Source: Thermoproteaceae archaeon (GTDB lineage Archaea > Thermoproteota > Thermoprotei > Thermoproteales > Thermoproteaceae). From it: 11,687 nucleotides of DNA. The stretch spans positions 1-11,687 of the forward strand of contig JAJHRB010000048.1 in NCBI GenBank assembly GCA_020833025.1, in the 5' to 3' direction. Every line of letters begins with the position of its first letter. Position 1 is the first letter of the stretch. Under the pieces are notes generated by a model. That model was not told where the DNA came from and made no database searches. It saw only the letters and a program-made list of their open reading frames with translations. Made by a program: the position numbers and the translations under genes. Positions 3-11,687 of this stretch are shown in pieces.

Positions 3-458
3 AGGAGGCGGAGGGGGGAGGGCATAATCTCGGCGCTCGCGAGGGACTGGGCGAGGGAGGAGGAGGAGCTGGCCAGGCGCGCGTTCAGAATCCTCGAGGG
101 CGTGAAACTCGCCGACAAGTGGGACAGACCGGCCTACGCCCTGTCGGGCGGCGAGACGAAACTGCTCGAGATCGCCAGGGCGCTGATGGCGGGAGCCGAG
201 CTCATAATCCTGGACGAGCCGCTTGCCGGGATTCACGTGAGTTACGCCCACGAGCTGCTCAAGGCGCTGAGGGACCTGAGCCAGCAACACGGGGTCACGC
301 CCCTCATAATCGAGCACAGAATTGACATAGCATTTAAGTACGCCGACTACGTCTACGTGATGGCGGGCGGCCAGATTGTGTCACGCGGGACTCCCGACGA
401 GGTCATTGCTGACCCGAGGGTGAAGGAGGCCTACGTGGGATCCTACTCCGCAGCCTGA
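3..458 (+). CDS. livG: Branched-chain amino acid ABC transporter ATP-binding subunit (LivG-like), 5'-truncated by the window edge
   Basis: The frame is open from base 3 (RRRRGEGIISALARDWAREEEELARRAFRILEGVKL...), so the GTG at 102 is internal. It has the signature LSGGE, Walker B IILDEP, H-loop IIEHR, and the LLEIARAL / DEPLAG / GTPDEVIADPRVKEAYVG pattern typical of LivG. Confidence 0.85.
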   Translation, partial: RRRRGEGIISALARDWAREEEELARRAFRILEGVKLADKWDRPAYALSGGETKLLEIARALMAGAELIILDEPLAGIHVSYAHELLKALRDLSQQHGVTPLIIEHRIDIAFKYADYVYVMAGGQIVSRGTPDEVIADPRVKEAYVGSYSAA

Positions 459-491: not shown

Positions 492-579
492 GCCGGGGTG
501 GCCGAGCGGCCCAAGGCGCGGGCCTGCTAAGCCCGTCCCCGTTGAGGGGGCCCGGGTTCAAATCCCGGCCCCGGCGCCA
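492..579 (+). tRNA. tRNA-Ser(GCT), intronless, CCA encoded; integration target
   Basis: Folded by hand: acceptor GCCGGGG (492-498) / CCCCGGC (569-575), D arm, anticodon stem CGGGC/GCCCG with loop CTGCTAA (GCT at 526-528), long variable arm CCCC-GTTGA-GGGG, T arm CCGGG-TTCAAAT-CCCGG, discriminator G576, CCA 577-579. Confidence 0.97.
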
Positions 580-602
580 GCCCCTCTTGACACATATCAA
601 GT
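520..602 (+). repeat. Left attachment site (direct repeat copy 1)
   Basis: 520-580 is identical to 11340-11400 (61 bp). After 2 mismatches (CC vs TT), 583-602 is identical to 11403-11422 (20 bp). Confidence 0.95.
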
Positions 603-691
603 AGCGGCGCCGCCTTTGCAACGACGGCGCGCTTTGTCCAAAAGCGGGCCAAGCCCTTCAAAAGGCGCGCGACCAAGAACCGTCCAGGCGT

Positions 692-1531
692 CTATTGCCG
701 TACGGTATTCTGTCTCTCCTGCATCTCGATCAACCGCTCCACAAGTTTGTAGAAGGCCCTCTCCGTGATGACACGCTTCAAGACCTGCAGGGTGCGGTTA
801 ACGGCCGCCTCCTCTATCATCCGCTCGAGTTCCTCTCTCGCGCCAGGCACCTCCTTTATCAGCCGCTCCACGTCCACGTTGGGCTCGAGAACAATAATCT
901 CACTCTGCGCGCGGCTGCGGAAGAGCTCGAAGAGCTGCCGGTACTCACGGCTGTCGCTAAACGGCAGCACGAAATACGTGCAGGACAGATCGTGGTCGTG
1001 CTGCAGTATTGCCGCCAGGTCCTCCACGGAGCCGACACAGAGCACCCGAACGTCTCTGCACCAGCTCCACGAGCTCCACGGCCGCTTGGGAAACGCCCGC
1101 GGGGAAAGCAGCCACGCGCAGAGGAAGTAGTACTCGGGGTGCCCCGCCTGTATTGCAGCCCTGACGCACTCCCTGGACCTCTCGCAGAACTCTGCCGGCG
1201 TCACGGCGCTGTTGACCTCCACGACCGCCCGCATGAAGTGAGCGAGGGGATCCGCCGCGGGCAGGCAGACCCTGGCGCCGTCTCTCAGGACTCCGAGCTC
1301 CTCGAGCGCGTCTCCCACCATCGTCCTCACGCTGCGGTAGTTCCGCAAAACGCCGCACCTCGCGCTCAGCTCGTACACTTCGGCGATCAGGGCGTCCCGC
1401 TTCGCGCACCCGCCCCGGCGCTCGAGCAGCTGCCTCACAGCCGCGCGCACGAAGTCCCTAGCGGAGCTGACGCCCTCAGGGCATTCCGGCCCCTGGACAG
1501 GGCCGCCGTTGCCCTCCCCTGTTGACGCCAT
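692..1531 (-). CDS. Hypothetical protein (~279 aa), possible N-terminal winged-helix domain and C-terminal alpha/beta domain
   Basis: Protein-like ORF divergent from the rep operon. ATG 1531 (MASTGEG...) is preferred over 1585 because the extra 18 codons run through the intergenic repeat region. The N-terminal helical segment ending in a beta hairpin (RDFVRAAVRQLLERRGG...LGVLRDGARVCL) only suggests a wHTH. Confidence 0.7.
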   Translation of the reverse strand: MASTGEGNGGPVQGPECPEGVSSARDFVRAAVRQLLERRGGCAKRDALIAEVYELSARCGVLRNYRSVRTMVGDALEELGVLRDGARVCLPAADPLAHFMRAVVEVNSAVTPAEFCERSRECVRAAIQAGHPEYYFLCAWLLSPRAFPKRPWSSWSWCRDVRVLCVGSVEDLAAILQHDHDLSCTYFVLPFSDSREYRQLFELFRSRAQSEIIVLEPNVDVERLIKEVPGAREELERMIEEAAVNRTLQVLKRVITERAFYKLVERLIEMQERQNTVRQ

Positions 1532-1647
1532 AAGCCTGTCCAAGCTCCGGCCTAAATGAGCCTTTCGGTGGCAACGGCGCTTCAACAGCGCTGCCGTGAT
1601 GCCGCAACGGCGGGGCGCACATTTCTAGCCGCGCGCGTGCGGGGCAC

Positions 1648-2001
1648 ATGCGGTCTCATGCCCATGCCCATGTCGGGTGCGTCCTGGGCAGGATAGTGAG
1701 ATTCGGCCCGCGCCAGTTCGAGATCTCGCTGGATCCGCCGCCGTGGTGGCTCCCGAAGCTGCAGATGGCGAAGTACTTCCTCGCCGCGCTGCAGGTCGGG
1801 GACAGGGTGATCCAGAACGTCAGGCTCACGCTCCACCGCCGGCGCGGCGGCAGGGTCTACTTCTACGTGCCCGGCGACGCGCGGCTCGCGCTAGAGGAGG
1901 CGGCGGGCAGGGGGGAGCGTCTCGTCTACATTCTCGACCTGATACCGCTGCCGGAAACGGTATCCCCGAAGAGACAAAACAAGCGGGCCGCGCCGGCATG
2001 A
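1648..2001 (+). CDS. Small putative DNA-binding regulator (possibly AbrB/SpoVT-like), paralog of 9598..9957
   Basis: First gene of the operon, with its stop overlapping the next start (ATGA 1998-2001). It aligns by eye with 9598..9957 (DPPxW, RRRG, YVP motifs). The fold assignment is inference. Confidence 0.75.
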   Translation: MRSHAHAHVGCVLGRIVRFGPRQFEISLDPPPWWLPKLQMAKYFLAALQVGDRVIQNVRLTLHRRRGGRVYFYVPGDARLALEEAAGRGERLVYILDLIPLPETVSPKRQNKRAAPA

Positions 2002-2294
2002 CCGCGCCGGCGCAGGCAAGGGGCGCTGGGAGCGCCAGAGCTGGCGGCGCCCCGCCGCCGGGCGATGGGAATTATTTAAGCGTGTTGGCCGTGAGGAAGC
2101 TGAACGGCATCACGCTGCCCGTCATAACGTGTCTTGGTGACAGTGTGATGACAGTGCACCGCACGCCTCCCGCAATTGTCAGAAAGATACTTGACGAGGA
2201 GCCAATTGAAGTTGACAAACATGCAATCTTCTTCGACGAAATTGAAAAGATCAAACGCTGCACGGGCAAGAGAGTTGTCATAAGGCTGCCATGA
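1998..2294 (+). CDS. Hypothetical protein (98 aa)
   Basis: C-terminal part of ORF 1677..2294 starting at ATG 1998. It has ATGA overlaps with both the upstream and downstream genes, and the C-terminal ~70 aa look globular. Confidence 0.7.
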   Translation: MTAPAQARGAGSARAGGAPPPGDGNYLSVLAVRKLNGITLPVITCLGDSVMTVHRTPPAIVRKILDEEPIEVDKHAIFFDEIEKIKRCTGKRVVIRLP

Positions 2295-5200
2295 GTGCAG
2301 TTGAAAGCAGCTGTCTGAAAGACCTCAAGGCGCCGCACTTCGCCGCGGGCGAGAGGGCAGTCGTCGTCACGCGGAGCGGCAAGTACTACGAGGTGCGGAT
2401 CGTGGACGCGCGCGACTGTCGCGTCATTGAGATCGTCGCGCAGACGAGGAGCCTGGCGTCGGGGTCGGTCGAGAAGGCGCTGCGCCGTGCAGGCCTCTCG
2501 GCGGAGGACATCGCGAAATTCCTCGACTGGGCAAGGGGGCTCGGGCAGGCCAGGGGCAGAGGGAAGGAGGAGGTCGCGAGACTGCTCAAGGAGGTGATCG
2601 ACGGCGCGAGGAGGGCGCTGGCGGGAGATTTGAGCACGCCGCACTTGAACGTCCTGATACCGAAGCGCGACAAGACGACCGTCACGGGGTGCCGCCCGGC
2701 GGAGTGCTGGCAGCGCGCCAACGCCGCGGCGGTCAGGCCTAGGGACATAGATCCAGATCTGGCAATTCTCGACTTCGACTCGGAGAGGGCGCTGGCAGCG
2801 GCCGCGCGGCTCGGCTTTGACCCCAATAAGCACATGCACATCCTGGCAGGCCCTGCCGTTGACGGCGCCGTTCTCACGCCGGAGGGGCTGTGGAGGCTGC
2901 CGGACGGCCGCGTCCTCGAGCGGGTCCCGCGCAGGATCCACCTGCCCGTGTACGTTCCTGGCGGCTGCAAGAGAGACTTGCGGGCGCCCGGACTCGAGGT
3001 AAAGTGCAAGACGCCCGTGAACATTGCGGGGAGGCACCCCTCTGGCGCCGAGTACGAGCTCGTCGACGGCGAGCTCCTGGAGGCCAGCTGGCGGGCAATT
3101 AAGGATCTCGTCGCGGAGCTCGGGGGAGACCTGCCCGGCTACGAGAGACCGCCAGAGTGCAGCGAGGAAAGAGCGGTGGACGTAGACGAGCTGGCAGGGC
3201 TCTTCGGCCGCGTATACGCGCTGGCGCACCTCGCGGGCTGCCCGCGCCACGACGCGATTTACGACCTGGCAATCCTGGGCCGCTTCGCTTGCGTCAAGAG
3301 GGAGGTTATTGAGGAGGTCGTCAGGCGCGTTTACGGGAGCGCGGGGGAGGAGTCGCAGACGCTGTCCCAGAGACTCAATCACGTCGAGAGGGCATACCGC
3401 GCCGTCCCGCCGGGGTCCGGAGAGCCGGGCCCGAAGCTCAAGTCGCCGGAGAAGATACTGGAGGCGTGGTACAAGATCGACAGGGAGGCCGCAGAGATGA
3501 TCGCAAAAATTTTGAACATCGGTCTTCACCGCGCCCCGGCAGCCGAGTGTCTTGAGTTCTACATGAATATTTGCGAAAGGCGGGTGGTCGCCCGCCCCGC
3601 AGAGGACAGCAGGATTTACGTCCTTATCGAGAGCTATCACTGCAAGGAGATCGTGAACAAGAAGACCTGGGAGGTCGAGAAAAAGATCTGCGGTTACTTC
3701 CACAAGGCGGTGATTTACCACGGCCCCAAGCCGCGCAGGGTTTACGACGTGACGCGGCAGATGTGGTACTACGAAATTGGCGGCTATTACGGTACGGACC
3801 TGCGCGCGGTCGTCGAGAAGCTGAGAAAGGCGTCGGCAGGCGAGCCGATGTACATCAGCTCTAAGCACCTCGACGAGCTGATTGCGATTTTCCAGAAGGT
3901 GGCCGACAGGCATGAAGTGGCCCTTGCCGTCGGCATCCTCCCCGCCGAGAGCGGGGCCGCGCTGGTGGACGACCACGGCATTCTCGACACGGGGCCCTCG
4001 CCTGAGGACGCAGTCGCCGACCTCGAGAGGGCGCTGAGATCCGTCCTGAAAGTCTACCCGCCCGAGAATCATGACGCCGCGCTCGCGTCTGCGGGCTACG
4101 TCCTGGCCCTGAACGCAGCGCCCGTCTGGTGGTTCCACAAGCCCAACGCCGAGGTGCCGCTCCCGATAATTCACGGCGAGTCCGGTCTCGGCAAGTCCGA
4201 GCTGATGCGGAGGGTGGTAGAGCTGGCGGTCATAGGCCTGGAGGCGAGAAGGAGAATCGTGGAGATACGGAAGAAGATCGTCGACGAGCAGATAGCGGAG
4301 TACCTCGCGCCGGAGGTGTACAAGGCCACGGAGTATTTTTCGGCCGAGCAGTTCCGCAACGACCTAGACGCCAACCCGCTCGTTCTAATAGTGGACGAGC
4401 AGAGGCCCGGCGACCCGAGGAGCGAGAGGGCCCCCGCCAAGATCTACGGCCGCTTCTGGCTCCAGGTATCGACGGCAGAGTGGGGCAGAAGGCTCGCCCA
4501 GCACGCCTCGAGATACGGCGGAGGGTTCGGCTACAAGTTCTTCCGGCAGAGGGCATTTGCCATCGTAACGAACTACCCCCCCGAGAAGTGGAAGCGCGCG
4601 GGCCTCGCGTTGGGGGCCAGCGCCGAGGGCGCCGTGGATCGCCGCATTTTCGAGATCCCCTGGGAGAACGTCAAGCTCGACGGCACCAAGCTGGACAAGA
4701 TGTACACGCCGCGCTACTCGGTGCTGGGCGCCCTCGTGCACGTAATTAACAAGCACTTCCGGGAGCTGATCTCTGCGGGCAAGTTCGCGGACTTCGCGAT
4801 AAAGCTATGGCTGAAAGTCGCCGAGGAGTTCGAGCCCAGGCTGGGCCGGCTGGAGGGCATACGGAGGATGGCAGAGGCGTTAGAAAAGCTCAAGCGCTAC
4901 AATGAGGAGCGGCTTGCCCTCCGCGACCCGGTCACGGCGGCGAGGGAGGAGCTCCGGCGCAACGCGCTGGAGTACTTGAGGGAGGAGGCAAAAGTGCCCG
5001 ACCTGAGCCCTGCCAGGCTCGCGGTTAAGGTGATCGAGTACGCGCAGGAGCTGGGGCTGGTGTTTCGCAAGCCAAAATGGGCAGACGAGGTTGACAGGGT
5101 TCGCGAGGACTTCTGCAGGGCGCTTGCAGCCGCGGTCGGCGTTCCGGACTACGACTGCAGCACGTTCGTGACGACAAGGGTGGAGGAGTACAAGACGCCG

Positions 5201-5887
5201 GCAGAGGCGCCGCTCTTCAACCTCATTGCCGACAGGGAGCTGCGGGAGGCGCTCTGGCGCGTCTTCGTGGACTACGCGGCCAGGGGATACGTCCCCTCAG
5301 TTCTGGCGGGGAGCGTGCTCTGGCCGAAGAACACCAGAGCGCTCGGGAAGATTCCCAGAACGCCGTGGAAACGCCCGGACGGAACCGTCGAGTGCTATTA
5401 TAAACTGAGCTGGCAGGAGTTCTTCGAGACCTTTGTCGGCAGGCTCTTCATTGCCGAGGAGGAGACACATGCTGAAGAAACAGCTACCTCCCCGGCGCCC
5501 GGTGTTGAGCGTGTTGAGTTTCCGAAGCCCTTGACAGGCGTTGGGGAACAAGCGACAAATATCGAAACCGCCCCGCCGAGCGGTGTCAATATAAGTAAAG
5601 CGCAAAGCGAACTCAACACGCTCAACACGCTCAACACGCTCAACACCGCCCCCCGGGACACACTAACAGAAAAGGACATGCACGCACATCATGGAGGCAG
5701 AATTGAGCGGTGCAAGGCGAACATAATTTGCTGGAACCGCTTGCAGGTCTGCATCTGGCGGTCACTGAGAGGCACCCCGGAGGAGAAGAAAAAGCTTGCT
5801 GCCGAGGAGCTGGAGAGACGCGGCGAGCTGTTTTACAAGTGTCTCGCAGACGCCGAGGAGTACGCCGAGAGGGAGTCGGGGGCGTGA
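2291..5887 (+). CDS. Replication protein: PrimPol (AEP superfamily) + PriCT-like helical domain + SF3 helicase
   Basis: PrimPol-like motifs: LNVLIPKRDK, LAILDFD (2771-2779), KHMHIL (2831-2839), GLEVK...HPSGAEY. PriCT-like segment: GCPRHDAIYDLA...VERAY. SF3 motifs: Walker A GESGLGKS (4175-4198), Walker B VLIVDE, motif C IVTN, arginine finger AVDRRIFEIPW. Confidence 0.88.
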   Translation: MSAVESSCLKDLKAPHFAAGERAVVVTRSGKYYEVRIVDARDCRVIEIVAQTRSLASGSVEKALRRAGLSAEDIAKFLDWARGLGQARGRGKEEVARLLKEVIDGARRALAGDLSTPHLNVLIPKRDKTTVTGCRPAECWQRANAAAVRPRDIDPDLAILDFDSERALAAAARLGFDPNKHMHILAGPAVDGAVLTPEGLWRLPDGRVLERVPRRIHLPVYVPGGCKRDLRAPGLEVKCKTPVNIAGRHPSGAEYELVDGELLEASWRAIKDLVAELGGDLPGYERPPECSEERAVDVDELAGLFGRVYALAHLAGCPRHDAIYDLAILGRFACVKREVIEEVVRRVYGSAGEESQTLSQRLNHVERAYRAVPPGSGEPGPKLKSPEKILEAWYKIDREAAEMIAKILNIGLHRAPAAECLEFYMNICERRVVARPAEDSRIYVLIESYHCKEIVNKKTWEVEKKICGYFHKAVIYHGPKPRRVYDVTRQMWYYEIGGYYGTDLRAVVEKLRKASAGEPMYISSKHLDELIAIFQKVADRHEVALAVGILPAESGAALVDDHGILDTGPSPEDAVADLERALRSVLKVYPPENHDAALASAGYVLALNAAPVWWFHKPNAEVPLPIIHGESGLGKSELMRRVVELAVIGLEARRRIVEIRKKIVDEQIAEYLAPEVYKATEYFSAEQFRNDLDANPLVLIVDEQRPGDPRSERAPAKIYGRFWLQVSTAEWGRRLAQHASRYGGGFGYKFFRQRAFAIVTNYPPEKWKRAGLALGASAEGAVDRRIFEIPWENVKLDGTKLDKMYTPRYSVLGALVHVINKHFRELISAGKFADFAIKLWLKVAEEFEPRLGRLEGIRRMAEALEKLKRYNEERLALRDPVTAAREELRRNALEYLREEAKVPDLSPARLAVKVIEYAQELGLVFRKPKWADEVDRVREDFCRALAAAVGVPDYDCSTFVTTRVEEYKTPAEAPLFNLIADRELREALWRVFVDYAARGYVPSVLAGSVLWPKNTRALGKIPRTPWKRPDGTVECYYKLSWQEFFETFVGRLFIAEEETHAEETATSPAPGVERVEFPKPLTGVGEQATNIETAPPSGVNISKAQSELNTLNTLNTLNTAPRDTLTEKDMHAHHGGRIERCKANIICWNRLQVCIWRSLRGTPEEKKKLAAEELERRGELFYKCLADAEEYAERESGA
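5500..5648. repeat. Origin-like module 1 inside the 3' end of rep
   Basis: GTGTTGAG x2 (5502-5518), a 93-bp core, then CTCAACAC x4 at 9-bp period (5612-5647). 5502-5520 and 5610-5628 form a perfect 19-bp inverted repeat. The right arm encodes LNTLNTLNTLNT. Confidence 0.8.
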
Positions 5888-8000
5888 TCTACCTCGGCGG
5901 CGTCAAGTTCTGGGACGGGGAGCGGGTCAGGGCCTTCTGGCCGTACTTCTACGTCATCTCGACGGGGCGCGTCCCCGGCGCGGAGAGGACCGACCTGAAC
6001 GCCCGCTGCTGGGACGGCACGGGCTACAGGGAGTGTCCCGGCAGGGTCTACGCCGCGCGCGCGCGCGGCACCCCGCGGAGGTCAGGGAGCTCAGGGAGAA
6101 GTACGCCAAGTATGGCAAGGTGTCGCAGGCGCGCATCCTCTTCGTTTTCAGGTACTCCGTGGACACGGGCAGGCCCCCGCTGGTCTTCGCGAGAGATGAG
6201 CGCGAGCTGGCTGACAGCATGGAGAGACGGGTCCCGAGGTACGCTGTCGTGGACGTGGAGGTGGTCAACGGCAGGGTGCTGTACGGCTGGGCCCTCCCCG
6301 GCGGCGGGGTGAAAATATCGGACAATATCCTTGATCTGTACGCCGACCTGGAGAAGGTGAACCTCGTCGTCGGCTACAACCTTGCCGGCTTTGACTACAA
6401 GTACCTCGGCGGCACGCAGCTCTACATAGACGCCGGGAAGCCCGTCGGCATTGTCGACCTCTTCGACTTCGCGACGGGCGGCTGGCGCTCCTCGCTGGGC
6501 GTCGGCGAGGAGGCATACTCGCTGCACGAGGTGGTCAGGCAGGTCGGGCCCCCGCCGGAGATCGACATGCGCGAGTGGGTCAAGGCCAAGATGCGGCGCG
6601 GCTGGCTGGCGGGAGAGGAGCTGAGGCGCTACCTGGAGTGGGACGTCCTCGCGACTCTCCGTCTCGCGGAGGCGTGGCTTCCCGTGCTCGCGGCGCTGGG
6701 ATCCCTGGCTGGAGTCCCGCTCCACCTGCTCTGGGTCTCCGCGCGGAGCGCGTCGCCGGGCAGTCTCCACGAGGCGATGCTGGCCAGGCTGACCGTCGAG
6801 AGGGGGTACGTCCTCGAGGACAGGAGGCGCGAGCGCTCGTTCGGCGGGGAGAAGGTCGTCCTCAGGAGGTGCGGCCTGTTCCGCAGGGTTGCCGAGTACG
6901 ACTTCCACATGCTGTACCCCACGGCGTATTACGAGCTCGGCGTTGACCCCATAGAGGCGTACGAGTGCCAGAACGGCTTCCGCGGCGCCGGGAAGACCGT
7001 GTGCTTCAGGCAGGGCGACGCCTACGCCTACCTCGCCAGGGTGTACAAGGCAAGGGAGATAACGAAGAAAATGGGCGACAAGGCGCTGGACCAGGCCGTC
7101 AAGATCGTGGCCAACTCCGCCTACGGCGTGCTGGCAAAGCCCGAGGGCTACGGTCTCAACGAGCACGCCTCCGCCGTGATCTTCAACGAGACGGGGGCCC
7201 TCTTCGAGAGACTGGTGGATAAAATGCGCGCCATATACGGCGACACGGACTCCGTCTACGTCCCGCTCGCCAGCGACCCCTACCCCGACGATCACGTCAC
7301 GGCCGTGGCGCAGGGCACCGCCAGGGAGCTGTGGGGGGACAAGATGCTGTACGGCGGGATCCACTTCCGCCTCAAGCTCGAGGGGGTCTGGGACGTCTTC
7401 ATCTACGAGAAGAAGAACTATATCAAGTGGAACGAGAGTAAAATCGAGACCAGAGGCGCGGTCTTCAAGCCGAACCAGCTCCCCGCCGGCTGGAAGTACG
7501 GCGACTGGCGCCGGCTTCTCGTGGAGTTCGCGGAGGGGAGGAAGTGCTGGCTGGAGGAGCTCCGGAAGCTGCCGCCGGAAGACGCCATGCTGGAGACGTC
7601 CATCGACCTCGCCGACTTCTTCACGACAACGAGAGGAGAGGACATCAAGGCGCTTGACCTGCGGCGGCTGCCCGTCCTCGCGAGACTCCTCGTGGAGTCT
7701 GGCGGCACGGCCTACGCGCTGAGAAGGGGCGAGCGCGGCATTGTTGACGCCCGCTACCTCTTCATCAGCCGCGGCTTGAAGAGCCTGTCGCTGATCGTCC
7801 ACGCGGCCGGGGGGCTCTTCCGCGTCGACGTGTCGAGGGCGGAGCTCCGGAAGGACGGGAGGGGCAGGCCGGTCGCCGCGGAAATTGCCGGTACGTACAG
7901 GCCGCTCGAGAGCGCGGAGACAGTCTACGAGGCGGCCGCGGCCACTTACACCCACCTGAGGGGAGTGTTCGGGGACTGCAGGCGGGCCAGACTGGCGTGA
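5884..8000 (+). CDS. polB: Family B DNA polymerase with 3'-5' exonuclease (~704 aa if repaired), frameshifted at ~6054-6074
   Basis: The GTG start overlaps the rep stop (GTGA 5884-5887). The N-terminal FWPYFYV segment is in the 5710 frame and everything from HPAEVRELREK onward is in the 5796 frame. Exo I VVDVE, Exo II GYNLAGFD, Exo III YLEWD. Pol motifs DFHMLYPT, KIVANSAYG, YGDTDS, KKNY. Confidence 0.92.
6054..6067. repeat. (CG)7 microsatellite at the polB frameshift
   Basis: CGCGCGCGCGCGCG is read directly. Removing one CG joins the two frames as VYAARARHPAEV. Confidence 0.85.
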
Positions 8001-8086
8001 CGGGCTGGAATCACGGCCGTGACCCCAGCGCTCGGCTCTGCCTCCGGGCGCGCGCATGTGCTTTCTCTAGTCTCCATGCCCGGTAC

Positions 8087-8237
8087 CCGGTGGTTAGTGT
8101 GGTGAGCGTGTTGAGTCTCCGAAGCCCTTGGCAGATATTGAAAAACGGGCGACAAATGTCGAAACCGCTCTCCCAGCTGGCATCAACTCAAGTAAAGCGC
8201 AAAGGGGACTAACCACACTCACCACACTAACCACCGG
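8087..8237. repeat. Origin-like module 2 (diverged direct-repeat copy of module 1)
   Basis: GTGGTTAG/GTGGTGAG/GTGTTGAG, a 93-bp core, then CTAACCAC/CTCACCAC/CTAACCAC. 8087-8106 and 8218-8237 form a perfect 20-bp inverted repeat. It aligns ungapped to module 1 at offset 2597 (103/136 identical by hand count). Confidence 0.8.
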
Positions 8238-8310
8238 CCGCCGTGGAGCTGGCCGCGGTTGTTCTTCCATTGTGCGCTTGCCGCCTGGCGGCTGCGGGCC
8301 GGCGCGCGCC

Positions 8311-8342
8311 TTTTCAATAATCAAAATAAGTATTAAATACTT
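8311..8342. promoter_or_regulatory. AT-rich island (possible unwinding element, or BRE/TATA promoter)
   Basis: 26 of 30 bases at 8311-8340 are A/T in an otherwise GC-rich element. It contains AAAATAAG-TATTAAATA, but no obvious downstream ORF. Confidence 0.4.
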
Positions 8343-8816
8343 CGCGGCGGCGAGGGCGGTGTGGGCTGACCGGTGCTGACCTCCTCCGCGCGGACGGCGC
8401 GCGGCTAGGGGGGGCCGCGGCCGGCCGCAGCGTCACGATCCCGAGCATCCCCAGAACCCGCCAGAGGGACTCGGCGGCGCCGCGCGGGCTCCCGGCCGCG
8501 ACGATGATCGCCTCGCACCTCAGCGCCGTGAGCCGCTCCGGACATCTGTTCTCGCTGCACCACTCGCGCAGCTCGCTTAGCGGCGCCCCGGCCAGCCACG
8601 CGCCTGCGCGCGCCTGACCAGAACCGGCAGCGGCCTGCCGCTCGCGCTGTAGAGCCTGGCGCTCGCGCCCTCGGGCAGCAGGCGCTCGAGGTCGTCAATT
8701 GGGACCAGGCTGGGCGCGGCTGGCTCTCGCGGGGCGCGTAATAGAGTTCTGCCGCGCTGGCGCCGCACCGCAACGGCCCGGTTCGTGCGCGGCGTGCCAT
8801 AAGGGCGGGCAGACAT
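8314..8816 (-). pseudogene. Probable frameshifted orphan gene
   Basis: The protein-like segment LVPIDDLERLLPEGASARLYSASGRPLPVLVRR (8577..8816 frame) continues after a -1/+2 shift at ~8599-8613 into a start-less open frame WLAGAPLSELREWCSENRCPERLTALRCEAIIVAAGSPRGAAESLWRVLGMLGIVTLRP, which stops at 8316-8314. The start (8816 or 8800) is uncertain. Confidence 0.4.
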
Positions 8817-8842
8817 AAGTTGCTGGAAGCAGCCACTGCGGC

Positions 8843-9472
8843 ATGCTGAGGCTCGTCGCCTACGTCAGGGTGTCGAGAGAGGACGAGCGCCCGGAGAACC
8901 AGGAGTTTGCAATCTACAAGTGGGGCGCCGAGAGGGGCCACCGGGTAGTCGAGGTCGTGAGGGGCGCCGGCGCCTCCGGCGCCCTGCCGCCGGCAGAGAG
9001 ACCGGGCTGGCAAAAGGCCGTACAGCTACTGGAGCGGGCTGACGGCATTGTCGTGCACGCGCTCGACCGCATTGCCAGATCGCTGTGGGACCTGGCCAGC
9101 GTGGCGAGAGAGCTGGAGGCCAGGGGCAAGCTTCTGGTGAGCGTCCGCGAGGAGTGGCTGCAAGACGTGGACCCCAAAATCAGACAGTTGATTGTCGCCG
9201 TGCTGGGCTGGGCGGCAGAGATAGAGCGCGAGTTCATCCGCGAGAGGACGCGCGAGGCGCTGGCCAGGCTGAGGGCAATGGGCAGGCGCGTGGGCAGGCC
9301 CCCGAAGTGGAGCGAGACAATACGCCGCCGCATAATCGACCTCGTGAGGAGGGGCATCACGCTGAGAGATGCCTGCAGGCTGGCCGGCGTGGGGTACAGG
9401 ACGGCGCTCAGATACTTGTCGAGAGACCCGGAGTACCTCAAGGCGAGGGCCGAGGCGAGGCTCAAGGGCTGA
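8843..9472 (+). CDS. Small serine recombinase (resolvase/invertase family) with C-terminal HTH
   Basis: Catalytic YVRVS, LDRIARS, helix E AEIEREFIRERTREAL, GRPPK minor-groove arm, and C-terminal HTH GITLRDACRLAGVGYRTALRYL. Confidence 0.93.
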   Translation: MLRLVAYVRVSREDERPENQEFAIYKWGAERGHRVVEVVRGAGASGALPPAERPGWQKAVQLLERADGIVVHALDRIARSLWDLASVARELEARGKLLVSVREEWLQDVDPKIRQLIVAVLGWAAEIEREFIRERTREALARLRAMGRRVGRPPKWSETIRRRIIDLVRRGITLRDACRLAGVGYRTALRYLSRDPEYLKARAEARLKG

Positions 9473-9483
9473 GCCTGCGGGGA

Positions 9484-9519
9484 GGGAGCACGCCTCCTGT
9501 CGGCGGGAGTGCATCTCCT
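9484..9519. promoter_or_regulatory. Two tandem quasi-palindromes GGGAG-N5-CTCCT, 21-bp period
   Basis: GGGAGCACGCCTCCT (9484-9498) and GGGAGTGCATCTCCT (9505-9519), intergenic. Confidence 0.4.
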
Positions 9520-9568
9520 CACCTCTCGGCAGCACAGCAACTCGCCACCGCCAGGAGGGCCGCGCGCC

Positions 9569-9576
9569 AATTTAAG
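9569..9576 (+). promoter_or_regulatory. TATA box for leaderless gene 9598..9957
   Basis: AATTTAAG ends 21 nt before GTG 9598. Confidence 0.6.
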
Positions 9577-9597
9577 CAGCACCGCGCCCGTGCCGGC

Positions 9598-9957
9598 GTG
9601 CCGCGCTACAAGCCGATAGTCGTCAGGTACCCGCTGCCCTGCGTCGCCGCCGCCGTGATCTTCTGCGAGACGCGCGGCGCGGGCATGTGCCTCTCGCTCC
9701 ACGACCCGCCGAAGTGGGCCGTCGAGGTGCTCAACTCAGCCGGGTACTACACGTTGTACTTCGCGATCCGCGGGAGGCTCTACGAGGCGGGGGGGAGACT
9801 AGTGAGGAGGCGGGGCTCCGTCTATCACGTCTACGTCCCGGCGCCCGCGGGCAGGGTGCTCAGGCAGCTGCGCGCCGAGGGCTACCAGGCCGTTTGCCTT
9901 GTCGACATCAACATCAAGCAGGCTCCTGGCACGCTTACGACACAAAGAGCAAAATGA
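9598..9957 (+). CDS. Small putative DNA-binding regulator (119 aa, possibly AbrB/SpoVT-like), paralog of 1648..2001
   Basis: C-terminal part of ORF 9085..9957. GTG 9598 is in frame and correctly spaced from a TATA box. It aligns to 1648..2001 and is followed by a T-rich terminator. Confidence 0.75.
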   Translation: MPRYKPIVVRYPLPCVAAAVIFCETRGAGMCLSLHDPPKWAVEVLNSAGYYTLYFAIRGRLYEAGGRLVRRRGSVYHVYVPAPAGRVLRQLRAEGYQAVCLVDINIKQAPGTLTTQRAK

Positions 9958-10002
9958 GTAAAGTGGCGCTTAGCGATCGCCGCAACAGTTGAAAGGGCCC
10001 CG

Positions 10003-10038
10003 CTTCTTTCTTTCTTTATCTTTTTTCTATTTATTCCT
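10003..10038 (+). terminator. Oligo-T / pyrimidine-rich archaeal terminator
   Basis: CTTCTTTCTTTCTTTATCTTTTTTCTATTTATTCCT (T6 at 10021-10026) lies ~45 nt after the 9957 stop, between convergent genes. Confidence 0.65.
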
Positions 10039-10054
10039 GCTGGCCGCCGCGTAA

Positions 10055-11284
10055 TTAGGGGAAGACCCTAGGCGCGTGCTGTTCAAACACGGCGCGGAGG
10101 CGGCGCTCGTAGTCGGCTATATAGTGCTCTACGGTCACGGCGAGACCGCCTGGCAGCGAGCGGCCCTGAAGCACGGCGATGTCCGCGACGTCGACGCCGC
10201 GGTCCAGCAGCCACTGCGCGAAGAACTTGCGCAGCAGTCTCGGCTCGAGCCACGGGAGCCCCGCGCGCTCCCGCGCCTCCTTGAGCCACCTGTAGACCGT
10301 CAGCTCCTGGCACGGGAACAGCCTCTCGGTGCTGAGCTGAAGCTGCCGGCAGAATTTCTCCCTCCAGGGCAGGTAGACCTCCTTGAGGTACTTCACCGCG
10401 CCCTCGGTGAGGAACACGAGCGGCTGCCTCTTCGGGCCCTCCGTCTCTCCGAGGAGCAGGCGCCTTTTCTCCAGCTGCAGGCCGTCGAGCCTCGCCCTCA
10501 GCAGGTGGTCCAGCCTGACGCCGGTCTCCGCCATGATGCCCCACACCGCGGCGGCGCACGGCGAGATTTTGTGCGCCTCCTCCCACACGCGTCTCACCTC
10601 CTCTAGCGTCGGGACGCGGAAGCTGTTCCTCGCCCTGCTCTGGACCGTCTTGAAGCTGTCGTAGAGCAGCGAGGCGAGCTGCGGGTCCTTCACGCGCACC
10701 ACGGTGTCGATAAAGCGCTTTAATGCGACGGCGGTCTTCCCCGTCACGCGCGGGCGCTCTATCGTGTACACGCGCTGCAGGGTCTCCGGCGACAGGACCC
10801 AGCCCACCATGTCGAGGAACCTGACGAGGTACCTCACGTAGTAGTTGACGGTGTCGCGGGACACGCCCTCGGCGATCAGCTTCCCGCGGAAGAGCTCCAC
10901 GTCCTCGCGCTCGACCCTGTAGGCTATCTCGCGCCTCACCTGGCCCGGCAGGAGCTTCGACAGCTCGTCGATGACGTAGTCGCGGTACTTCTTGGCGCGC
11001 AGCGCCTTTGCGATGACGCTGATGGCCTGCACTATGTCAATTTCATTAATAGGCGGCTCGGGCAGGCACCTCTCCACCGTCTCCGGCATCGCGCTGTAGA
11101 GACGCTCCAGCTTATCCGCCTGAGGCGCCGCCCTGCCGGAAAGCCAGGCGTGGACGGTGCTCGGGTTCACGCCGGCGGCTCTGGCGATATCGCTCAGCGA
11201 GAGGCCCAGCTCTCTGAGACACGCTATAATGCCGCGCCGCTGCTCGTCGCTCAGCCTGAGCCAGTACGGATTTTGGACGCTCAT
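10055..11284 (-). CDS. int: Tyrosine integrase with N-terminal XRE-type HTH
   Basis: N-terminal LRELGLSLSDIARAAGVNPSTVHAWLSG (XRE HTH). Catalytic ETGVR, GPKRQ, RLLRKFFA, LQGR, EHY. It starts 55 nt inside the right att repeat. Confidence 0.92.
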   Translation of the reverse strand: MSVQNPYWLRLSDEQRRGIIACLRELGLSLSDIARAAGVNPSTVHAWLSGRAAPQADKLERLYSAMPETVERCLPEPPINEIDIVQAISVIAKALRAKKYRDYVIDELSKLLPGQVRREIAYRVEREDVELFRGKLIAEGVSRDTVNYYVRYLVRFLDMVGWVLSPETLQRVYTIERPRVTGKTAVALKRFIDTVVRVKDPQLASLLYDSFKTVQSRARNSFRVPTLEEVRRVWEEAHKISPCAAAVWGIMAETGVRLDHLLRARLDGLQLEKRRLLLGETEGPKRQPLVFLTEGAVKYLKEVYLPWREKFCRQLQLSTERLFPCQELTVYRWLKEARERAGLPWLEPRLLRKFFAQWLLDRGVDVADIAVLQGRSLPGGLAVTVEHYIADYERRLRAVFEQHAPRVFP

Positions 11285-11307
11285 TGGATATCTTTTGGCG
11301 AGCGCCG

Positions 11308-11313
11308 TTTAAA
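11308..11313 (-). promoter_or_regulatory. TATA box of the integrase gene
   Basis: TTTAAA on the minus strand, 23 nt upstream of ATG 11284 (leaderless spacing). Confidence 0.55.
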
Positions 11314-11339
11314 TGCGTTGCGCCGAATTCGAAAAATAT

Positions 11340-11422
11340 GGGCCTGCTAAGCCCGTCCCCGTTGAGGGGGCCCGGGTTCAAATCCCGGCCCCGGCGCCAG
11401 TTCCTCTTGACACATATCAAGT
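11340..11422 (+). repeat. Right attachment site (3' tRNA-Ser fragment plus trailer)
   Basis: Copy of 520-602 lacking the first 28 nt of the tRNA, so it cannot fold into a tRNA. Confidence 0.95.
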
Positions 11423-11448
11423 CACAGCCGCACCGTAAACTTACGGCG

Positions 11449-11476
11449 CGCCGCAATTAGAACGCCGCAATTAGAA
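11449..11476 (+). repeat. Perfect 14-bp tandem duplication CGCCGCAATTAGAA x2
   Basis: 11449-11462 equals 11463-11476. Confidence 0.85.
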
Positions 11477-11501
11477 GAAACTCGCCTTAAGGTTTAGAAT
11501 C

Positions 11502-11687
11502 CTATGCCCAGCTCGTCAAGAATCTCGCTATTTCCTCTATCGTCCCGCTTGCGACCTCTCGCGCCCTCCCGCGCTGCACCTCCCACAGCTCGATGCGCTG
11601 CACGCCCCCGAAGCTAGACCAATGCCTTGAGTATCTCTTGAGCTCCTCGAGGGCCGGCCTAGCCGTTATCCTGCCGTATTCGTCAGA
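11502..11687 (-). CDS. C-terminal fragment of a hypothetical protein, 5'-truncated by the window edge
   Basis: Open frame from 11687: SDEYGRITARPALEELKRYSRHWSSFGGVQRIELWEVQRGRAREVASGTIEEIARFLTSWA*, with TAG at 11504-11502. Confidence 0.65.
   Translation of the reverse strand, partial: SDEYGRITARPALEELKRYSRHWSSFGGVQRIELWEVQRGRAREVASGTIEEIARFLTSWA

Follow-up and report, generated by a model that had tools for sequence, protein, structure and literature searches.

Small mobile elements normally use the polymerase of their host, and those below about 40 kb that encode one of their own usually carry a protein-primed enzyme (PMC4889955). The described systems closest to the element we report here are: the pRN1 family of plasmids of the Sulfolobales, characterized by the PrimPol-helicase Rep ORF904 (PMC4234260; PMC2777425), in which a 100-nt stem-loop just 3' of rep is required for replication and acts as the origin (PMC4234260); the archaeal cryptic integrated elements, among them ThaMY3-E2 with a family B DNA polymerase (PolB) and an MCM, NitKor_MY1-E1 with a primpol-S3H protein and NitAR2-E2 with a Cch-like helicase (PMC6563490); the HelPrimPolB proteins of metagenomic viruses, in which PolB is fused to a superfamily 3 (SF3) helicase and a PrimPol (PMC7544198); Cch of SCCmec and the Rep of SaPI (5dgk, 8tch), initiator-helicases of integrative elements that replicate after excision; and the casposons (Cas1 and PolB) and pipolins (piPolB), integrated elements with a family B polymerase gene of their own (PMC5695915; PMC6563490). 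With these we compare a 10.8-kb insert in a stretch of 11,687 nucleotides (hereafter the window; contig JAJHRB010000048.1 of assembly GCA_020833025.1), which is the whole of contig C12 in a 1.56-Mb, 126-contig metagenome-assembled genome (MAG). The host is a crenarchaeon, Pyrobaculum. The insert is, we are fairly confident, an integrated copy of a plasmid-like mobile element of the archaeal cryptic integrated kind, belonging to an undescribed family with its own replisome core.

The insert has the classic attL/attR anatomy of integration at a tRNA-Ser(GCU) gene. This target gene (492..579, plus strand; ARAGORN, Rfam RF00005 at 52.9 bits) is still intact, and a repeat search finds an 83-nt direct repeat (family D2), composed of the 3' 60 nt of the tRNA gene and a further 23 nt, at 520..602 (attL) and again as a tRNA 3' fragment at 11340..11422 (attR), with 81 of the 83 positions identical. 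The outer ends of the two copies are exactly the borders, 520-11422, that an earlier reading of the sequence made without database searches (the original prediction) had drawn for a tRNA-integrated plasmid-like element, and the att repeats, the tRNA gene and the integrase bear that description out. The integrase gene (10055-11284) adjoins attR at one end of the element, as in described cryptic integrated elements. The element further encodes its own replication proteins, a primase-helicase-like Rep and a PolB, and, as had been predicted, shows no recognisable virion or conjugation genes: no capsid, packaging, terminase, relaxase or type IV secretion system family matches any open reading frame (ORF) of the window in Pfam, NCBIfam or PHROGs, the orphan ORFs remaining as such. 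The replication genes form a plus-strand operon (1648-8212) consisting of a 117-aa ORF, a 98-aa ORF, rep, polB and a doubtful 71-aa ORF, joined by four 4-nt overlaps: ATGA at 1998, ATGA at 2291, GTGA at 5884 and GTGA at 7997. The first three of these overlaps had been noticed before; the last is an addition.

Comparison with described systems

The element resembles the pRN1 family in the architecture of Rep (an N-terminal AEP PrimPol, a helical domain and a P-loop helicase), in the small upstream ORFs that share its operon, in its crenarchaeal host and in a long stem-loop at the 3' end of rep. In contrast to it, pRN1 is 5.3 kb in size and lacks a polymerase gene, an integrase and a resolvase. 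The stem-loop of the window element lies inside the rep frame, is built of 9-bp repeat arrays and is present in one to three copies per element; the two Rep proteins have no detectable sequence similarity, with the Pfam model PF09250 failing and profile-profile comparison alone linking them; and the predicted helicase fold is nearest to the Cch/SaPI Rep type, unlike a named SF3 member.

With the cryptic integrated elements it shares integration at a tRNA gene, the integrase, the lack of virion and conjugation genes, and a private pool of primpol, Cch-like helicase and PolB. Those elements, compared here by description, are thaumarchaeal, and the PolB-bearing example is 98 kb long with its PolB beside an MCM; a PrimPol-helicase translationally coupled to a B3-like PolB within 10-15 kb is not described among them (PMC6563490). 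HelPrimPolB likewise unites three activities in one expression unit, but as a single polypeptide, with a PolB of the EpsilonN-like clade and a divergent motif C and KxY, whereas the window has two coupled genes and a PolB nearest the B3 group with canonical YGDTDS and KKNY motifs. Cch and SaPI Rep provide the best structural matches to Rep; they are, however, bacterial and only about 10% identical to it in sequence, Cch lacks a fused AEP domain and the window Rep lacks a Pfam match to DUF927. The casposon explanation is ruled out: no Cas1 family is found in the ORFs, and the element is bounded by directly repeated copies of a tRNA 3' portion, with no terminal inverted repeats. Unlike both casposons and pipolins, the element appears to integrate through a tyrosine recombinase at direct att repeats and to combine a B3-like, primer-extending type of PolB with a dedicated primase-helicase; in the comparison with pipolins the best PolB matches were all primer-extending enzymes (archaeal B3, B1, Pol II and Pol alpha).

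The original prediction did not recognise this gene combination from any described family. Our literature search likewise found no named plasmid or virus family with the rep-polB synteny; the kind of element is nonetheless already known, from the cryptic integrated elements and the PrimPol-helicase-PolB fusions, and the novelty lies at the level of the family itself and its variants. Four features of this family are new: the translational coupling of a primase-helicase to a primer-extending type of PolB within 10-15 kb, the extreme divergence of the PrimPol of Rep, a B3-like PolB clade specific to mobile genetic elements (MGEs), and covarying repeat-array palindromes within the rep coding sequence.

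Rep, a predicted primase-helicase

The rep gene (2291..5887, plus strand) translates into 1198 aa that can be divided into an N-terminal region, a PrimPol, a helical domain, an AAA+ helicase, a C-terminal region, a linker and a Cys4 tail. Conventional searches find nothing: Rep has no match in Pfam, NCBIfam, PHROGs or the PDB (phmmer), nor does a 19-sequence family profile match the PDB (hmmsearch). The relationship of the N-terminal part emerges from profile-profile comparison with an alignment of 27 genuine Prim-Pol domains (PF09250) taken from genomes of Thermoproteota (hhalign Prob 94.3%, E 1.1e-7, 189 columns), in which ILDFDS, IHLPV, LEVK and HPSGAEY of Rep align with the DxD, H, acidic and hPSG..Y motifs of PF09250. 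The alignment runs on from the catalytic domain into the following helical, PriCT-like domain, the two together occupying Rep ~144-367 (2720..3391). Eleven controls, comprising reversed, column-shuffled and unrelated profiles, gave a Prob of at most 0.4%. The predicted catalytic residues D161, D163 (DxD), H217 and E236, together with the HPSG..Y motif, are invariant in 19 Rep homologues, and the neighbours of Rep in a language-model search are the Prim-Pol, PriCT and NrS-1 HBD clusters (0.94-0.96). The sequence comparison with its controls supports identification of the N-terminal part as an AEP PrimPol. A profile search for shorter or stand-alone relatives of this part returned fragments of the Rep family only.

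The central region is predicted to adopt an AAA+ replicative-helicase-like fold (Rep ~544-879; 3920..4927) with a Walker A motif, GESGLGKS (nt 4175-4198), and a Walker B motif, LVLIVDE. An AlphaFold2 (AF2) model of residues 540-1060 has a predicted local distance difference test (pLDDT) value of 72.9. In an exhaustive structural comparison (VIA-align) this model matched SCCmec Cch first (5dgk_B, Z 11.5, 238 aa, root-mean-square deviation 3.9) and SaPIbov1 Rep second (8tch_B, Z 8.6, 265 aa), with the next best at Z 5.9. The MCMs, clamp loaders, SaPI5 primase-helicase, ASFV PrimPol and poxvirus D5 scored at Z 4-6, that is, as AAA+ background, and the SF3 members among the structures compared (poxvirus D5, ASFV PrimPol, B19 NS1) lie inside this general background at Z 4.3-5.1. 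The top Foldseek match of the model is again 5dgk (prob 0.93, E 0.06); language-model leads for the region are DUF5906 and DUF927, and a weak AAA_22 match is seen in 14 of 18 Rep members. The helicase is best described, from its model, as a Cch/SaPI-Rep-like AAA+ domain, a resemblance short of proven homology. On account of the PrimPol profile alignment, the model fold and the Walker motifs, we call Rep a predicted primase-helicase. The earlier description of a PrimPol-SF3 Rep accordingly stands in its PrimPol half; its SF3 half is not established, the fold being nearest to Cch and SaPI Rep.

The C-terminal tail (residues 1127-1196; 5669..5878) is a module of about 70 aa with C1141, C1147, C1154 and C1184 invariant in 19 homologues at the spacing C-x5-C-x6-C-x29-C. 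All Rep homologues conserve the module, and it recurs, with 79% identity, at the end of a 976-aa protein that is otherwise unrelated to Rep and is encoded by a sister element on contig C115 of the same MAG. This tail may bind a metal and dock to the origin or to a host factor.

A B3-like DNA polymerase in an apparently element-borne clade

The gene coupled to rep, polB (5884..8000, plus strand), encodes a family B DNA polymerase with 3'-5' exonuclease motifs, read in one frame from 5884 to ~6066 and from there on in the -1 frame. All catalytic motifs are present: Exo I (DVE), Exo II (NLAGFD) and Exo III (YLEWD), and the polymerase motifs A (DFHMLYPT), B (KIVANSAYG), C (YGDTDS) and KKNY. The match to PF00136 reaches 27 bits against a cut-off of 23, and the best PDB match is 5mdn. 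A profile of the PolB clade, run against the PDB, finds B3-group structures at 1e-40 to 1e-37 over positions 19-607 (Pyrobaculum calidifontis 5mdn at 1.5e-40, the Thermococcales at ~1e-37), followed by Sso B1 (3e-19), E. coli Pol II (1e-18) and Pol alpha (1e-13); there is no phi29-type polymerase among the best 60 matches shown. By this comparison the polymerase is nearest to the archaeal B3 group and is predicted to be of the primer-extending type.

Close relatives are few: at E < 1e-30 only 23 clusters were retrieved from a representative library of 1.84 billion proteins. As to the phylogeny that the original prediction had proposed, a FastTree tree places the enzyme in a fully supported, all-metagenomic clade of 20 members, apart from the two PolBs of the host; that tree lacks labelled B1-B10 references and has flagged long branches, so that the nearness to B3 comes from the profile, and a position inside B3 as against sister to it is not given by the tree.

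More distant members of the clade (35-38% identical) are found in other small elements on fetched contigs, at 1686-8238 of L051, 4985-12367 of L052 and 685-7994 of L046, where the partners are a coupled operon of 794-aa and 312-aa proteins with PolB, an MCM helicase or a ResIII helicase. The 794-aa neighbour, on L051, was considered as a possible relative of Rep and shows no similarity to it (Prob 2.6% and 0.2%). Since these distant members pair with other proteins, the rep-polB pairing is specific to the Rep family; from their sequence contexts, the clade as a whole looks to be MGE-borne with varied helicase partners.

Palindromic units inside rep and downstream of polB

Two palindromic units accompany these genes: pal1 (5491..5657; inverted repeats I5 and I6, direct family D6), inside the part of rep that codes for the linker, and pal2 (8079..8237; D1, I1-I3), a second unit after polB. 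Each is about 165 nt long and consists of arms of about three tandem 9-bp repeats, arranged as inverted arrays around a conserved core of ~85 bp. The 9-bp repeat is GTGTTGAGC / CTCAACACG in pal1 and CTAACCACA in pal2; the core has a GC content of 0.52-0.53 against ~0.65 for the window, which is even along its whole length at ~65%. Folded as single-stranded DNA, both units are more stable than shuffled sequences (z = -4.78 for pal1 and -4.39 for pal2; 0 of 200 shuffles in each case).

In the rep frame pal1 encodes the peptide ...ATNIET.PP.GV..S..QSELNTLNTLNTLNT, and both this peptide and the underlying DNA unit are present in every Rep homologue, in two or three copies in the longer ones. Thirteen copies of the unit were collected from eight loci, of which 11 are ungapped in the alignment used for counting. 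The arm sequences vary among copies (TTACCCACG, TTAGACACG and others) and retain their complementarity: pairing is seen in 66% of the arm cells, compared with 34-50% when the register is slid; both sides have changed in 17 of the 33 arm pairs, and 0 of 500 shuffles reach the observed pairing or covariation score. Protein constraint cannot explain this complementarity of the arms, and the unit is therefore selected at the nucleic-acid level. A miniature inverted-repeat transposable element is ruled out as an explanation of the palindromes: the unit sits at the same place in each rep, in frame, and its only other occurrence in the genome is in the sister element on C115, where a copy 94% identical to pal2 is found.

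Lambda carries its ori inside gene O, and the ori and crr of P4 are bound by the primase-helicase alpha. Like the units reported here, the lambda arrangement places initiator-bound repeat arrays in the linker-coding part of an initiator gene, and P4 (for the domain layout of alpha see PMC4889955) has its second repeat cluster, crr, kilobases away. Those systems differ in being bacterial phages with unrelated proteins, and the origin role of the window units is putative. When set beside the pRN-type origin, the units show hairpins (z -4.8/-4.4) and covarying arms. From this anatomy and the likeness to pRN1 we infer that the palindromic units are candidate origins of replication.

A proposed replication cycle and the points that weigh against it

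If these components act together, the following cycle can be envisaged. The integrase would excise a 10.8-kb circle; Rep would bind the 9-bp repeats, open the lower-GC core or extrude the hairpin, and load itself as a ring helicase; its PrimPol domain would make primers, which the co-translated PolB would extend with proofreading; the resolvase would resolve multimers; and the integrase would re-insert the element at the tRNA gene. A stronger proposal is that the Rep-PolB pair and the palindromes amount to a self-contained minimal archaeal replicon within 10-15 kb, representing a new lineage of plasmids or capsid-less viruses; we put this forward tentatively, with the balance leaning somewhat to the other side. 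Were it correct, a single protein would find the origin within the sequence that encodes it, self-load as a helicase and supply primers, to be extended by a dedicated, proofreading B3-like PolB from the same message. A PolB clade specific to MGEs and sister to the cellular B3 enzymes would then bear on the exchange of PolB with mobile elements, and the PriL-like cassette that a sister element in this cell has in place of polB (below) would exemplify exchange of replication modules at conserved junctions.

Several points weigh against this account. On the side of Rep, the N-terminal segments of 19 members have no match to PF09250 even at E <= 10, and the Pfam Prim-Pol model also misses Rep in a genome-wide search; the AF2 model of the N-terminal part has a pLDDT of 56, with the catalytic part below 50 and only the helical domain (~290-410) confident, and Foldseek on this poorly modelled part returned only noise. 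On the side of PolB, no canonical PCNA-binding motif was noticed at the C-terminus when read by eye, and the assembled gene, with its motifs intact, changes frame. For the palindromes, an origin role is suggested by anatomy and analogy, and the copies of one element carry different 9-mers (CTCAACACG in pal1 as against CTAACCACA in pal2), which sits uneasily with a Rep of one specificity. As almost every accessory ORF is an orphan, virion or other roles are possible for them.

An element of 10-15 kb from a hyperthermophile with a primase-helicase and a primer-extending, proofreading type of PolB would constitute an unusually complete private replisome. Rep and PolB are thermostable candidates for biochemistry. 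To our knowledge Pyrobaculum has no plasmid vectors; the palindromes inside rep present a concrete candidate origin, and such an origin together with rep could seed genetic tools for the Thermoproteales. With the PolB clade, an archaeal B3-group relative carried by MGEs moreover enters the debate about how the replicative polymerases of archaea and eukaryotes arose (PMC7544198).

Relatives and distribution of the family

Rep has 43 homologues with 56-61% identity, all annotated as hypothetical and coming from Pyrobaculum and Thermoproteus MAGs of hot-spring metagenomes. It was sought without success in 28 other Thermoproteaceae species genomes, every complete one included, which fits an accessory, mobile gene and explains how the family escaped description. 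In the six contigs inspected (L001, L003, L005, L009, L011 and L013; L numbers denote fetched contigs and C numbers contigs of the window's MAG, G000) the order of small ORFs, rep and polB is kept throughout, so the rep-polB synteny that the original prediction had proposed to look for in hot springs does exist there. In these relatives rep encodes 1200-1524 aa and polB, uninterrupted and with a 4-nt overlap, 708-714 aa; wherever their contigs extend far enough, the resolvase and a 65-80% identical integrase are present as well. The relative on L001, from another metagenome, occupies the same LivF/tRNA-side site as the window element, and some others sit in different contexts, in indirect support of mobility. 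None of the 13 fetched contigs has the terminal overlaps that would indicate circularity.

The relatives measure ~13-15 kb and carry four to seven further orphan genes after polB, which the window lacks; on this account the window copy looks reduced. The post-polB block of the relatives encodes proteins of 98, 177, 181, 214, 124 and 105 aa. The most constant of these is an acidic (isoelectric point, pI, 4.8) orphan of 177-179 aa with no Pfam or PHROG match, encoded at 8095-8628 of L009, 16449-16988 of L001, 11260-11796 of L003, 7692-8228 of L005 and 10605-11138 of L011; in L001 and L003 the gene is directly coupled to polB. Judging from sequence and position, the protein is a candidate polymerase accessory factor. 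As cargo, L009 additionally bears a gene for a protease of the thermopsin family (PF05317), at 11311-12651, where it separates the accessory block from the resolvase.

Sister elements and mosaicism in the same genome

A second element of the same MAG, on C115 (L006, 6662-14647), lies at a tRNA-Gly(GCC) gene and has the same layout, with a minus-strand 306-aa ORF, a 129-aa ORF and the 976-aa protein, which apart from its tail is unrelated to Rep. DNA identity to the window is 87.6% over the Rep tail (5694-5875), 91.5% from the polB stop codon through pal2 (7995-8310) and 82% over the resolvase region. The place of the window's 2.1-kb polB is taken in C115 by a cassette of three genes (106, 389 and 186 aa), of which the 389-aa product is a PriL-like primase large subunit (PF04104, E 6.9e-7). 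Because the two elements share these flanks and differ in the cassette, we conclude that replication cassettes are exchanged at conserved junctions. The right arm of the window element was exchanged with another element of the same genome.

A third element, on C17 (L007, 1-10620), has an integrase 71% identical to that of the window, a tRNA-Ser(CGA) gene at 10494-10581, att-like repeats at both contig ends (69-116 and 10472-10541) and different cargo, including ORFs of 521, 600 and 386 aa.

State of the window copy and alternative explanations

The polymerase had been described as having intact exonuclease and polymerase motifs. The motifs are all there, as noted above; what was missed is that the reading frame is broken at a (CG)7 run (6054..6067), as is apparent from comparison with the intact relatives P0048, P0198 and P0199. 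The frame from the GTG at 5884 matches the relatives for ~60 codons, the first 56 residues being 75-80% identical to those of intact relatives, and past GRVYAARAR the homologous sequence goes on in the -1 frame. The (CG)7 is the longest CG run of the window, all others being (CG)4, and with one CG unit fewer the sequence would read GRVY-AARAR-HPAEV, which has the spacing of GRVY-RVRTD-HPADV in the intact 709-aa relatives. Frame A past the switch stays open to 6312 with no close stop codon. To judge from these features, the break reflects slipped-strand mutation, variation in the population or an error of assembly. Self-replication of this copy may be precluded by the frame change in the assembled polB; with the 2-nt expansion in polB, the missing post-polB block and the exchanged right arm, it is probably impaired.

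One may go further and regard this copy, as distinct from the family, as a dead relic with a polB pseudogene that neither moves nor replicates. To the frameshift and the missing gene block can be added that attL and attR differ at 2 of 83 positions and that the left-arm ORFs are unrelated to those of the relatives. The other genes, however, are full length: Rep is open over 1198 codons, and integrase and resolvase are intact. Furthermore, a 2-nt change in a dinucleotide run equally fits an assembly error or a reversible slippage variant, and the post-polB content varies among the relatives too, with L013 also lacking the 177-aa gene. We take the relic interpretation of this copy seriously, yet consider it somewhat the less probable side of the question.

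The next alternative concerns the palindromes, which might act as RNA attenuators or terminators for polB translation, as sites of the serine resolvase or as hot spots of module exchange. That pal1 and pal2 are in direct orientation around polB (D1), so that resolvase action would delete polB, that the mosaic junctions with C115 adjoin pal1/tail and pal2, and that an RNA stem accounts for the covariation no less well than a DNA cruciform are all in keeping with such roles, as are the differing 9-mers. Inverted arrays, each with three tandem 9-bp units, that enclose a core of lower GC are, however, the classic arrangement of origins bound by an initiator and unlike res sites or terminators; the unit is 3' in rep, as is the pRN1 origin (PMC4234260); most relatives hold all their copies inside rep, with none flanking a cassette; and the C115 element has a single copy. 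These points render the non-origin roles rather unlikely.

A third alternative would see in the insert a provirus of an unrecognised archaeal virus, with the orphan ORFs encoding virion proteins too divergent to name. Archaeal virion proteins are indeed often unrecognisable, and the relatives do have five or six extra small orphan genes after polB; in addition, the Atlas cluster structurally closest to the helicase region consists mostly of Taleaviricota viral proteins, though the TM-score is only 0.44, and one distant member of the PolB clade is on a contig with a weak 'FV_peptidase' match. Against this, neither the window nor ten accessory proteins of the relatives match a virion, packaging or lysis family of Pfam or PHROGs, a simple hydropathy scan reveals no transmembrane-like segments in the small ORFs, searching IMG/VR with the Rep helicase profile brings up no relative, and no spacer of the host CRISPR arrays (74 units in three arrays) matches the window or its relatives. 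We regard a provirus as improbable and retain the plasmid-like cryptic integrated element as the preferred interpretation. A single 26-nt CRISPR match to C17 begins at the first base of a repeat+spacer unit and probably involves the repeat.

The original prediction also raised the possibility of a helper-dependent satellite, replicating itself and packaged by a helper virus. Its sole point is the lack of recognisable virion genes; no terminase, capsid-redirecting or helper-sensing gene was found, and no helper is known nor any CRISPR or IMG/VR link, leaving the suggestion without support and very improbable. The small-terminase matches in the window are to the helix-turn-helix (HTH) of the resolvase only.

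Finally, a programmed change of frame in polB, by a -1 ribosomal slip on the C-CCC-G that closely follows the CG run (ACC CCG read as CCC), would at 6072-6076 give GRVYAARARGTPAEV, one residue longer than in the relatives, but is the least credible of all, given that six of six inspected relatives have one uninterrupted polB frame, that the break is at the longest dinucleotide run of the window, as is typical of slippage mutations or assembly errors, and that frame A meets no stop soon after the site.

Accessory genes and flanking regions

The predicted pairing of a tyrosine integrase with a serine resolvase is borne out by family matches for both. The integrase (10055..11284, minus strand; 409 aa) has an N-terminal HTH, is not split by integration, and matches PF00589, PF16795, HTH families, the XerA-like NF040815 (E 1.7e-15) and phrog_5127 (E 4.8e-21). 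A TTTAAA box is located 26-31 nt upstream of its start (minus strand; window 11300-11320), within the 55 nt between the integrase and attR, at the spacing expected for a leaderless Pyrobaculum transcript.

The serine recombinase of the resolvase/invertase type (8843..9472, plus strand) has a C-terminal HTH and matches PF00239 (E 4.6e-31) over positions 2-144 of 145, together with HTH_23 and phrog_125 (E 4.7e-39); it is full length and 76-85% identical to its counterparts in L001, L009 and C115. It is followed by a conserved orphan ORF without a family match (9473..9957, plus strand), the 3' part of a 9085-9957 frame whose start is not fixed; this has 70% amino-acid identity to 13989-14642 of C115, where it likewise reaches past the resolvase gene. 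Between pal2 and the resolvase, ~440 nt (8311-8752) lack an equivalent in the C115 element, whose sequence runs on without a break there; they hold only a doubtful minus-strand ORF antisense to the start of the resolvase.

The left arm starts with an orphan ORF divergent from the operon (692..1585, minus strand; 297 aa as listed, the true start probably being internal), which has no Pfam, NCBIfam or PHROG match and a weak paralogue on C35 only; the relatives have an unrelated ORF of 270-278 aa at the equal place and in the same orientation. The first gene of the operon (1648..2001, plus strand) encodes a 117-aa orphan of pI 10.9, with 40% identity to its C115 counterpart and without a family match. 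The second (1998..2294, plus strand; 98 aa) is coupled through ATGA overlaps at either end; it was listed as part of a 205-aa ORF, the upstream part of which is out-of-frame, R/A/G/P-rich sequence, and the relatives have an ORF of 83-86 aa here. The 71-aa ORF (7997..8212, plus strand), GTGA-coupled to the polB stop codon and overlapping pal2, is of doubtful coding status: it is 90% identical to a C115 ORF, which weighs little as the underlying DNA is 91% identical anyway.

On the left chromosomal flank is the 3' end of a host gene for a LivF-like ABC-transporter ATPase (3..458, plus strand), an open frame that runs off the start of the contig; ABC-type paralogues of it are numerous in the genome, and its counterpart at the same att site in L001 carries ABC_tran and BCA_ABC_TP_C domains. 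The right flank (11423..11687) extends to the end of the window, which is also the end of the contig; it has no DNA match in 17 congeneric genomes, a result uninformative on the empty site. Elsewhere in the MAG, att-like tRNA-Ser 3' fragments are found on C69, C102 and C78. C19 (38658-38994) and C69 (879-1004) hold pieces of further integrases of this family, with 69-81% identity over 42-88 aa, which suggests older, decayed insertions.

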